Part shown: positions 6,001 to 9,000 of the stretch, piece after piece | Numbering within the stretch: position 1 is the first letter of the stretch | How the letters are laid out: the number at the start of each line of letters is the position of its first letter | Source of the DNA: a virus | Lineage: Duplodnaviria > Heunggongvirae > Uroviricota > Caudoviricetes | IMG/VR virus record: IMGVR_UViG_2537562191_000043 | DNA length: 9,254 nt | Strand: one strand, 5' to 3' | Program-made: the position numbers

Positions 6001-9000
6001 GTATGATGAGTTCAGTTCCTTCAATATCGGATACAGGCGTTTGCTGATGTCCTGTGCTTTCTCCATCTGTACCTGCATGTAGCAGAGGAGGATGATTTCC
6101 TCGTCTGTGAATTGCTGTGCTGGTTGCATGCTGCGAAGTTTCTTTTCGCACTCGATGAAGTATCGGCGTATCTGGCGGCCTTTTTCGTTACGCTCAACCA
6201 TCGCCAGTTCTTTGGCTGTGTCGAGAGTTAGGTGGTAGTCCTTGCTACGGCGATCACCTCCTCGCCCTTTGGTTTGCCCATTTTGGCAAATCAAAATATA
6301 GTCCTGGCTTTCAACGAATCCATATTCAGCAATGCGTTCTTTAACCCAGTGCGCGAACATTCTGCCCACACCAAGAAAAGAGTGTAGATCACGAGCGTTA
6401 ACTAGAAGAATTGTTTCGTTGTCGATAGTGCCGTTGAATACGGGGATGAGTTGACTGGTCATGATGACCTCCTTTGAAGTTTTAGTTAGCAATCACCAGT
6501 TAGTGGCTGGTGATCGGGTGTCAACTAGAGCCTTCAAAGATGCTCCGGGCATATTCCCCTTGCGGGTATTGTATTACGCCTCTCCACCCGACCTTTGTAC
6601 GGATGTGACTATGCCAAATTGCAGGCATAAAAAAGCCGCAAAGCTATCGGGTGCGGATGACCGCTTTGAAGTTCTAGTGCGGTCAGTATGCGATAGCTCT
6701 GGCGGATTTGTCAAATCATGTAGGCCTTATCTTGCTGTAAGCCGCGCCATTCGGGCTTTTCCCCAGATTTGGGGGAAACTATCTGCGAAGTATTCACCTT
6801 TAACGGCAAGTTGCAGGTTAGCCACGACCTTCCTCCTTTGGCTTGTGAATTTGTATCGTCATGTCGCTTTGAGTGGTGACTACAATGATAGAACCAGGCT
6901 GAAGGCTGTTAAGATTGAATGCTTCGTAAAACGAATCCAAGGCCAGCGCTTTTTTATTCTTTCGGTTCCACCAACGCCATCCCTTGCTACAGGCTACACT
7001 GACAATCCACTGTCCACTCCTGTAAGCCATATAAACCAGATGAGCAAAACCTGAAGGAAGGCAATCCAGTCAATAATCGTATATTTCGCGAAGGAGTCCA
7101 TCAATTAACCTCCTGCGGCGGTTCTGGTAGCGGCATCCAGTGTGTGGCCTGTTCAATACCATTACCATCAATACCATTACCAGGCGCAACCGTTATCTGC
7201 CCACGCCGAAAGGTGCTTCCGGTATAGCGTGCGGAGCATATTAGCGGCTCAACCAGATCACTATCGAAATTCACCGAAATAAGCACGTTCTGGCCCTTTT
7301 CAGGCATTCGATCACTACAGCTTATCCAGCCATCCGTAGTTACCGGAGAATTGCCAGCCTTGCGCATGGCAATCTCCATGATTTCAACCATATCCCCTGG
7401 TGGAATTTTACAATGCTGACCAGTATGCCTCTGCTGTCTGGCATATTCGAGGATGTGCTCCAGCTTGGTACGATTAATCATGATTTATCTCCCTTAAGCA
7501 TGGCAGCGCGGCAGGCATCCTCTACGCCCTTAACTGCATCTGCGCAGTAGTTATAGCGATTGCATTCCACTAACTTCTGCTTGAGGTTTTCAATTGCTTG
7601 CGCGACATCAGCCTGTATTACCGGAACTGGCGGAGTGGTATATAGTTTTCGGCATTTGTTTATCCAACCGGCATGGTCAGGCGTGTCTGTAAAGCGCAAA
7701 TCGTTTTCGTAGCCCTCACGACTACGTTCTTTCCATTCCGTCCACGGAACACCGCTATTCCAAGTGGGGCGAGTGCAGGACTGATACAGAACAGGTTCAG
7801 CTTCCAGCGCTGCCAGAGCAATCCGTGCCAGTTCTTCCGCTTCTTCTGCTGGCAGTACAACGTTGCTACCAGGTCCGTATGTTTCGCGCCACTGCTTGAT
7901 TGTCAGCAGTCGCTCTTTGGTAATAGTGGTCATTTGTTAATCCTCAAAACTTTATGCCCGGGCGCAAAAGCACGCGTTTTGTCTTTGCTTATTCGCCAGC
8001 CATCCTTGCGCGCCTCTTTTGCACAGCCAGCCCATGACGTACCTATATACTCACCGAAGTCTGGCGACTTATATTTGCCATCTGTACACTGGAGGCAATC
8101 ACAATAGAGATGCATGGTGTAACTTGCAGCAATAGCCATATCACTCTCCTTTAGTGCGCAAGTGGTTTTTCCAGCGGTTTTGCTCCGCGCTGGGCTTTTT
8201 GCAAAAACCACAATCCATCATCCCGTAATATTTCATCAACCCCATCCGTCGGTTGCTGAGTCTCACCCACTGCCAGACGCCAGGAGCGTTTCTACGAACT
8301 AACAGAATCTTTGCTTTACGGTTTTTCATCGTTTTGCTCTCCTGCATCTCTTTGCTGCTCGTCGTGCCGCTGCAATACCGGTATGGCGGCGCTTTGGTGT
8401 CGGGATGATGTTCTTTGCAATTAGCGCAGAAGCCCAAAAACGAGTCGGATACGGTAACAAGCCGATACATGCCACACGCATTACTCACCTCCTTTGATGC
8501 GAATGCCAGCGGCGCGCTCGGCTTCACTTTGTTCCCAAAACCACTTGTGAAGCGCCATAAGCTTTTCGTCAATCGGTGCATATTTGCGATTAAAGTAGGC
8601 CTGAGCATCTTTCTCAGATTCGTCCGGTAATTCGCCAGGGCCAAACAGTGTGTTATAAATCCATGCTAGTCCGCTCTTAGCGTCGCCAGTTGCCTGCCAT
8701 TCGATAATGGCAGCCTGCATGACCAGAATGTTTTTCCCGATTAATAGGTCCAGTTCTTTGTACCGGTTGCGGATGTATGCATTCTCGCTTTGTAATTTTG
8801 CGTTGCGCTTTTCTGAGGCTTCAAGTAACGCCTGCTTATCGCGTAGAGCTTCTTCCAGTTCAGCAACATGGCATTCACTATCAATAAGGTTGTTCTCTGC
8901 TGCTTCAAGCTCAACACGCAGCTTCCCAACCGTAAGCGCAATCTCCTCGTTCTCCTGGTCGCGGCGTTTGATGTATTGCTGGTTTCTTTCCTGTTCATCC

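Follow-up and report, generated by a model that had tools for sequence, protein, structure and literature searches.

We report a chain of five small genes in a 9,254-nt stretch of viral DNA (IMG/VR record IMGVR_UViG_2537562191_000043; Caudoviricetes), the whole of which is referred to here as the window. The genes lie on the minus strand at positions 7101-8481 and are named by the length of their products in amino acids (aa), in order of reading the 51-, 62-, 69-, 151- and 126-aa genes. The chain very likely lies in an E. coli lambdoid prophage of the 933W/Shiga toxin (Stx) phage type, where it represents the variable, downstream portion of the exo-xis (early-left) region, and its five open reading frames (ORFs) very likely are genuine protein-coding genes. 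Identical or nearly identical genes are present in 933W, in VT2-Sakai and on hundreds to thousands of E. coli contigs.

The chromosome of E. coli SD134209 contains the 1.5-kb segment at window positions 7050-8550 with 100% identity; in this strain the lambdoid prophage adjoins a tRNA-Arg gene. From the N/cIII side towards the attachment site, this prophage carries cIII, kil, gam, bet, exo, DUF1317, DUF1382, a hypothetical gene, a TraR/DksA gene, ea22 and the chain, followed by ant, an MT-A70 methylase gene, DUF1382, DUF1627, xis (helix-turn-helix, HTH) and int, all on one strand except int. The exo-xis region has been defined as a conserved orf60a-orf63-orf61-orf73-ea22 block and a variable gene set that follows it (PMC8614690). 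In SD134209 the chain sits between exo and xis/int on the strand of exo-bet-gam, and the conserved block is found upstream of the variable genes as DUF1317 (orf60a-like), DUF1382 (orf63-like), TraR/DksA (orf73) and ead/Ea22. The last gene of this block, ea22, is named 'ead/Ea22-like family protein' by the Prokaryotic Genome Annotation Pipeline (PGAP). The exo-xis regions in lambda, 933W, VT2-Sakai and Phi24B occupy the same position as the chain, from exo/bet/gam to xis/int on the pL-transcribed strand. A first-pass annotation of the window, made from the sequence alone, had taken the chain for an early-region operon of a lambdoid prophage, and this is borne out by its location in the exo-xis/early-left region of a 933W-like prophage (PMC8614690).

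The closest relatives share the upstream half of the chain. Window positions 8100-8560, which run from the end of ea22 through the 51- and 62-aa genes into the start of the 69-aa gene, match 933W, Stx2 phage I, the PA series and phi296 at 99.8-100% identity, and the ea22, 51-, 62- and 69-aa genes of 933W, Stx2 phage I and VT2-Sakai are 98.9-100% identical to those of the window at the DNA level. Past the 69-aa gene the modules of 933W differ, whereas the window has the 151-aa gene, a stand-alone DUF551 gene and a DUF4752 pseudogene. Phi24B lacks four of the five chain genes (the 51-, 62-, 69- and 151-aa modules). Parts of the segment are present in 2334 of 5426 complete E. coli genomes, with at least 80% of the exact 1.5-kb combination in just 19 of them. 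Beyond the lambdoid Stx phages, the 51-aa module is also present in phiV10, in TL-2011b and in P1-like phages including RCS47.

Inspection of the junctions revealed that the genes follow one another back to back, with start and stop codons that overlap or abut. At the ea22/51-aa junction (TAATG), the TAA stop of ea22 and the next ATG share base 8481. ATGA overlaps join the 51- and 62-aa genes (8329-8326), the 69- and 151-aa genes (7933-7930) and the 151- and 126-aa genes (7481-7478), and at the 62/69-aa junction (8143-8137, TGA-t-ATG) the gap is 1 nt. A purine-rich Shine-Dalgarno (SD) motif precedes every start by 6-9 nt in all five genes (Table 1). The first-pass description, in which five minus-strand genes are linked by TAATG, ATGA and a 1-nt gap, each with its own SD, matches the sequence base for base. 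Stops and starts thus overlap or lie a few nucleotides apart with the SD inside the upstream gene, as translational coupling requires. The chain also extends in both directions: downstream, a TGATG overlap at 7103-7099 leads into the frameshifted DUF4752 pseudogene, and upstream the TraR/orf73 gene and ea22 overlap by 4 nt in SD134209.

Table 1. Coordinates of the chain genes and of other features discussed in the text.
Feature	Position	Strand	SD-like motif	Basis and remarks
ea22 (ead/Ea22-like, 257 aa)	8481-9254	minus		ORF list and sequence; Pfam PF13935, E 2.6e-35
51-aa gene	8326-8481	minus	GGAGG 8492-8488	TAATG start, ATGA stop; phrog_13831, E 1.7e-27
62-aa gene	8141-8329 (from ATG at 8329)	minus	GGAG 8342-8339	PGAP WP_000797281.1; phrog_1380, E 1.9e-40
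69-aa gene (Cys-rich small alpha/beta protein)	7930-8139	minus	AAGGAG 8151-8146	phrog_926, E 1.5e-36
151-aa gene (acidic mosaic protein)	7478-7933	minus	GAGGA 7945-7941	PGAP WP_001345189.1; segments match different PHROGs
126-aa gene (DUF551 domain, residues 51-123)	7101-7481	minus	GGGAG 7493-7489	PF04448, E 2.1e-21
DUF4752 pseudogene, frameshifted	6818-7101	minus		PGAP annotation in SD134209; ORF fragments 6994-7104 and 6818-7030
Alternative frame (155-167 aa)	8141-8608/8644	minus		N-terminal extension of the 62-aa protein; phrog_12350
IS3 orfA	4067-4393
IS3 orfB	4390-5280
IS3 ALIL frameshift pseudoknot	4348-4464

In the real segment the longest coupled chain of ORFs of at least 50 aa has five members. 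In 1000 dinucleotide shuffles of the segment, the longest chain was 0-1 in 903, 2 in 95 and 3 in 2, and never 5. The five-gene coupled chain therefore exceeds chance. A search of the minus strand within 7101-8481 returned neither a sigma-70-like promoter nor an intrinsic-terminator-like site. With no such site separating the genes, their layout is consistent with a single stretch of one long polycistronic mRNA.

The coding status of the frames was examined by comparing some 190 related loci drawn from IMG/VR and from GenBank phages. The 51-aa ORF is represented by 54 distinct alleles in 183 loci, all of them intact. Their lengths are 51, 56, 57, 58 and 60 aa, so that every indel is a multiple of three, and the indels observed are of 3, 6 or 21 nt only. 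All 54 alleles start at a TAATG or TAGTG overlap, the latter form arising from a single substitution that preserves both stop and start. An SD-like purine-rich motif (GGAGGTG in most) stands upstream of each, an ATGA overlap into the gene encoding MKNRKAK... closes each, and the coupled junctions are accordingly kept in every one. A divergent clade (MQVAFVGLLPHPIRLW...) retains the same residues via synonymous changes, and the variable sites of the gene fall at codon positions 1, 2 and 3 in numbers of 30, 28 and 43.

The ratio of nonsynonymous to synonymous polymorphism (pN/pS), pooled over non-independent pairs and ignoring phylogeny, was 0.36 for the 51-aa gene, 0.49 for the 62-aa gene, 0.19 for the 69-aa gene, 0.68 for the 151-aa gene, where it derives from a saturated mosaic alignment, and 0.67 for the 126-aa gene. 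Shifted frames gave 0.8-1.6 across the genes, with 1.33 and 0.89 for the 51-aa gene and about 1 for the 62-aa gene. We found no Rfam match within 7101-8481 and no excess RNA structure in the 51-aa region (folding z = +0.65), and on these two results an RNA element at 8320-8500 was rejected. All five frames look protein-coding, and the 51-aa ORF that follows ea22 in Stx phages of the 933W type very probably is a real gene missed by RefSeq. The first-pass annotation had argued from the coupling that even the 51-, 62- and 69-aa products are real, and had named unconserved frames or a non-coding substitution pattern as what would speak against it. The conserved frames, the indels in multiples of three and a pN/pS clearly below 1 only in the proposed frames support its argument, and the comparison favors coding.

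Several points weigh against the overall reading of the chain. PGAP/RefSeq annotates four of the five genes and leaves 8330-8480 blank in SD134209, and 933W is likewise annotated without the 51-aa gene; the ORF is called by PHANOTATE and appears in scattered GenBank entries. A 15-billion-protein collection contains some versions of the 51-aa ORF with a frameshift in the basic C-terminal tail; one such allele is present on 95 contigs. The third-position excess of the 51-aa gene is modest by itself, and pN/pS values of 0.36-0.68 indicate no more than moderate constraint. The binding of nucleic acid and of metal considered below for three of the products is drawn from composition only. Finally, the published exo-xis experiments concern lambda and Phi24B, and since Phi24B is without the 51-, 62-, 69- and 151-aa modules, the phenotypes they describe do not cover these genes.

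The first two of these points also favor a reading in which the 51-aa ORF is not a gene and 8330-8480 is either an untranslated spacer or part of a true gene in a long alternative frame. In the window the alternative frame stays open over 167 aa, up to 8644, with a junction sequence of ...SKEMQESKTMKNRK...; it has been annotated as ORF-46c in Stx2 phage I ('similar to phage C3208 enterohemolysin 2') and as VT2-Sap08 in VT2-Sakai, and it forms phrog_12350. Most alleles, however, have a stop within it. The 21-nt insertion found in the commoner 58-aa alleles leaves the 51-aa frame open and puts a TGA in the long frame; the 167-aa frame of the window is open only because its allele is without the 21-nt segment that carries this TGA in most relatives. 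The alternative-frame ATG at 8470 has no SD at the normal distance, whereas the short frame, its SD and both overlaps are kept throughout the 54 alleles, and pN/pS is low in the short frame and not in the other two. A spacer or RNA at 8330-8480 would also be at odds with the results for RNA families and RNA structure given above. We consider it very improbable that the 51-aa ORF is not a gene. The long frame (ORF-46c/VT2-Sap08) is very probably an artefact, and phrog_12350 probably a spurious gene family.

With the five short frames taken as genes, their alignment to related loci reveals a second feature of the chain. BLAST comparison of the 1.5-kb segment with these loci showed that similarity begins and ends at fixed positions: the start of the 62-aa gene, the 62/69-aa and 69/151-aa junctions, a point near the 151/126-aa junction, and the start and end of the DUF551 domain. 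Within the 151-aa gene the breakpoints lie at about residues 47 and 100, and in window coordinates at about 7790, 7625 and 7500. Breakpoints at gene and domain boundaries are the familiar lambdoid mosaic pattern. Related phages recombine precisely at the junctions of the chain, and each gene, or each domain in the case of the 151- and 126-aa genes, forms a mosaic module that can be exchanged on its own.

Loss and gain of modules are both seen among the loci compared. A few loci are without the 51-aa module entirely; in one of them (L017, at about 2440-2510) the 51/58-aa module has been lost by deletion between similar CAAAGGAG and CAAAGAGATG stretches, the ea22 frame runs on to a stop after ...KGDAGEQSDEKP, and the 62-aa gene retains its SD. 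In another (L040, at about 2330-2506) and in many other loci, an extra 58-aa gene (MKNRKAKRLFLQRPVRVVELVISNHKIAVLHPFGQVAFAAKRKPTASQNRRKKGYAVR; MKNRKAKRLF...) is inserted between the 58- and 62-aa genes and is ATGA-coupled at both ends. This gene is a paralogue of the 62-aa family, which therefore occurs in tandem.

For 933W it has been suggested that a cassette was inserted into ea22 (PMC8614690). Residues 1-157 of the 301-aa Ea22 of Phi24B are 97% identical to Ea22 of the window, and its C-terminal DUF551 domain is 42% identical to the separate 126-aa protein. Because the identity between the stand-alone DUF551 protein and the Ea22 C-terminus is only this high, the insertion model fits the window just loosely.

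The mosaic structure could also be read as hitch-hiking DNA, with gene ends that act as recombination linkers and proteins without a selected function. Mosaic breakpoints at the gene ends are what such a reading predicts, the two termini are the best conserved parts of the 62-aa family, and the downstream DUF4752 gene is already a pseudogene. It fails to account for pN/pS below 1 only in the annotated frames, for the internal SNRR and ARKDGWRIS motifs of the 62- and 69-aa proteins, which are kept at the protein level with synonymous change, or for the reach of the 69-aa family into Salmonella, Kosakonia, Pantoea and a virulent Klebsiella phage. We regard hitch-hiking as scarcely credible and return to the chain as a set of coding modules.

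The first two products of the chain are small and strongly basic. The 51-aa protein has an isoelectric point (pI) of 12.0, with 14 Lys and Arg residues, no Asp or Glu and a net charge of about +14. Its N-terminal half (VACIGLLPYPTRFWASALIA) is moderately hydrophobic, and its C-terminal tail is arginine-rich and ends ...RRHTGIAAARRAAKRCRRAKR. Homologues were found only in Escherichia, and the 58-aa allele gave no significant match in the PDB. A transmembrane, holin-like or small membrane toxin assignment was rejected, as the 51- and 58-aa forms each reach a 19-residue Kyte-Doolittle maximum of 1.24, below the usual threshold of about 1.6; the hydrophobic segment includes two Pro and one Arg.

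The 62-aa protein has a pI of 11.1. Its termini (MKNRKAK... and ...SAAQNRWKNH) are invariant and its SNRR core is conserved, with a variable middle, and the exact sequence is found on at least 999 contigs. The AlphaFold2 (AF2) model is of low confidence (predicted local distance difference test, pLDDT, 61; predicted template modelling score, pTM, 0.30) and hence unfit for a structure search, and the family profile had no significant match in the PDB. A zf-C2H2_jaz assignment was discarded: the score was 16.4 bits against a cut-off of 22.6, the two Cys are unconserved in the family and there is a single His.

The basicity of the 51- and 62-aa proteins weakly suggests that they bind nucleic acid. 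With lambda N-like arginine-rich-motif peptides the 51-aa protein shares an Arg-rich C-terminus, a charge of about +14 and a place in the early-left operon. It differs in that no sequence homology was found and the N-terminal half is unlike N; a boxB-like RNA target was neither sought nor found. The resemblance to arginine-rich-motif peptides such as lambda N is no more than a lead.

For the 69-aa family, a profile search of 1.84 billion representatives returned 394 clusters, nearly all of them stand-alone proteins of 60-90 aa, with one HTH_17 fusion. In 15 close relatives, including proteins of Salmonella, Kosakonia and Pantoea, C13, C15, C18, H62 and the ARKDGWRIS motif are invariant. Across 42 diverse representatives of the family only C13 and G47 are invariant, C15, C18 and H62 are merely common, and some members (e.g. 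P0300) are without the C-x-C-x2-C cluster. The first-pass annotation had singled out this product as a C-x-C-x2-C protein, a description that holds for the close relatives and not for the whole family. The protein may hold a metal via Cys13, Cys15, Cys18 and His62.

AF2 models the 69-aa protein as a small beta-alpha fold (pLDDT 78), for which the PDB offered no significant structural neighbour (Z of at most 3.1), and the family profile found nothing significant among PDB sequences. In BFVD the model matched uncharacterised phage proteins only, the best of them from a virulent Klebsiella phage. One apparent relative, P0210 (697 aa, nine matched stretches, E 7.5e-12), was rejected as a matrix metalloproteinase with fibronectin type II repeats; it is a repeat-amplified false positive, as its ...EGRxDGxxWCA... 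resembles the ...EARKDGWRIS... of the family.

The 151-aa protein is an acidic, three-part mosaic with phrog_60/3323 at the N-terminus and phrog_14306 at the C-terminus, and ends ...ACRAAMLKGDKS. It had no match in Pfam or the PDB. Several NCBI records name the identical protein 'dTDP-6-deoxy-D-glucose-3,5-epimerase'. As the sequence matches no Pfam sugar-epimerase family, this name is probably a propagated annotation error.

The 126-aa protein matches PF04448 with 77 bits against a cut-off of 22, over profile positions 1-68 of 68, and is called 'DUF551 domain-containing protein' by PGAP; it gave nothing significant against the PDB. DUF551 is regarded as a portable domain of unassigned function, as in YfdS of the cryptic prophage CPS-53 (PMC10834534, PMC4776307). 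The 126-aa protein shares the full-length domain with YfdS, P22 EaA-like proteins and the C-terminus of Phi24B Ea22. It differs from these in being encoded by a separate gene with its own 50-residue N-terminus, unfused to Ea22 or to the phrog_60 N-terminal module of the 151-aa protein.

DUF551 is the sole family found for the chain in Pfam, NCBIfam and PADLOC, in which the 51-, 62-, 69- and 151-aa proteins had no match; against the PADLOC-DB hidden Markov models (HMMs), none of the five proteins matched at E of 0.1 or below. The 51-, 62- and 69-aa proteins match PHROGs 13831, 1380 and 926 end to end as plain members that show no difference from them, and these families carry no functional annotation. 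A full-text search for four N-terminal peptides retrieved no papers. The first-pass statement that the C-x-C-x2-C protein and the arginine-rich 51-aa protein match no recognised family is thus upheld, PHROGs of unassigned function being all that was found for the 51-, 62-, 69- and 151-aa proteins. The profile HMM and structure searches that it proposed as a check returned DUF551 and function-less PHROGs, and no PDB fold for the 69-aa model.

Two functional readings of the chain were weighed. In the first, the cassette is an anti-defence or superinfection-exclusion module in which at least one small protein inhibits restriction, abortive infection or clustered regularly interspaced short palindromic repeats (CRISPR) immunity, or excludes other phages. 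The accessory region that contains the genes is hypervariable and the first to be expressed upon infection, their products are small and their modules are extensively shuffled. Small, shuffled, early accessory genes are typical of counter-defence loci. We consider this reading unlikely.

The second identifies the 3' end of ea22 and the 51- and 62-aa genes with the historical 'ehly2' determinant, whose products would perturb the envelope so that host ClyA leaks. The frame of Stx2 phage I that is annotated as similar to enterohemolysin 2 of phage C3208 lies over chain DNA, and ea22 of 933W is annotated 'similar to enterohaemolysin 2-associated ORF'. By its title, Oscarsson et al. 2002 (cited in PMC7093339 and PMC4164713) holds that ehly1 and ehly2 encode no haemolysins and cause ClyA release. 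That 'ehly2' of phage C3208 maps to the ea22 neighbourhood is a lead taken from second-hand annotation notes. The link between Ea22 and Ehly2 is, however, dismissed as twilight-zone similarity in PMC7093339, and the hydropathy of the 51-aa protein, even in its hydrophobic half, stays under the usual transmembrane threshold. We consider an ehly2 origin of these genes improbable. A narrower proposal is that the 51/58-aa Arg-rich protein (phrog_13831) is an overlooked functional early protein, either as a peptide that binds RNA or DNA and influences the gene expression of host or phage or, with the 62-aa protein, as the agent of the 'Ehly2' ClyA release; this is distinctly doubtful. The reading we prefer is that of five coding genes in the variable part of the exo-xis region.

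Further features lie in the remainder of the window. The minus strand at 6504-6593, in the gap that separates the DUF4752 pseudogene from ant (antirepressor) and directly upstream of the ant start at 6492, matches the Rfam family sRNA-Xcc1 (RF02221) with 65.4 bits against a gathering score of 53. The matched element may represent a 5' leader or may regulate ant. An insertion sequence (IS) element of the IS3 family at 4012-5320 splits the MT-A70 methyltransferase gene, which is intact in SD134209, into fragments at 3587-3988 and 5283-5402. Window positions 1-382 are the initial 382 nt of another copy of the element, inverted and 100% identical, and are adjoined at 442-891 by an oligosaccharide major facilitator superfamily (MFS) transporter gene that is apparently truncated. 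The minus strand at 3016-3384 encodes a DUF1627 protein that contains a VQP repeat and corresponds to Phi24B gp05 (vb_24B_3c). Phi24B gp05 has been modelled as a winged-helix, PVQ-repeat, coiled-coil 'possible transcription factor' (PMC8614690).

As established lambda biology and work on exo-xis suggest, the mRNA for the chain would start at pL and be extended by N-antitermination read-through right after infection or induction. Ribosomes ending one gene would re-initiate on the next via the stop/start overlap, and the small products would in this way be co-expressed. The exo-xis region as a whole is reported to bias the lysis-lysogeny decision and host physiology (PMC3824215, PMC10789677). 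The products of the chain would be non-essential accessory factors that tune host physiology and the lysis-lysogeny decision.

There is no sign of a new kind of system. The proteins are plain PHROG or DUF551 members with near-identical counterparts in 933W and VT2-Sakai, and overlapping genes and mosaicism are routine in temperate phages; the chain is for these reasons a real but ordinary finding, whose products are already on record as hypothetical proteins. Its value lies mainly in annotation: a 51-aa gene absent from RefSeq, an 'Ehly2-like' frame that is very probably spurious and an epimerase name that is unsupported. The genes of the chain belong to the least understood part of the medically important Stx phages.

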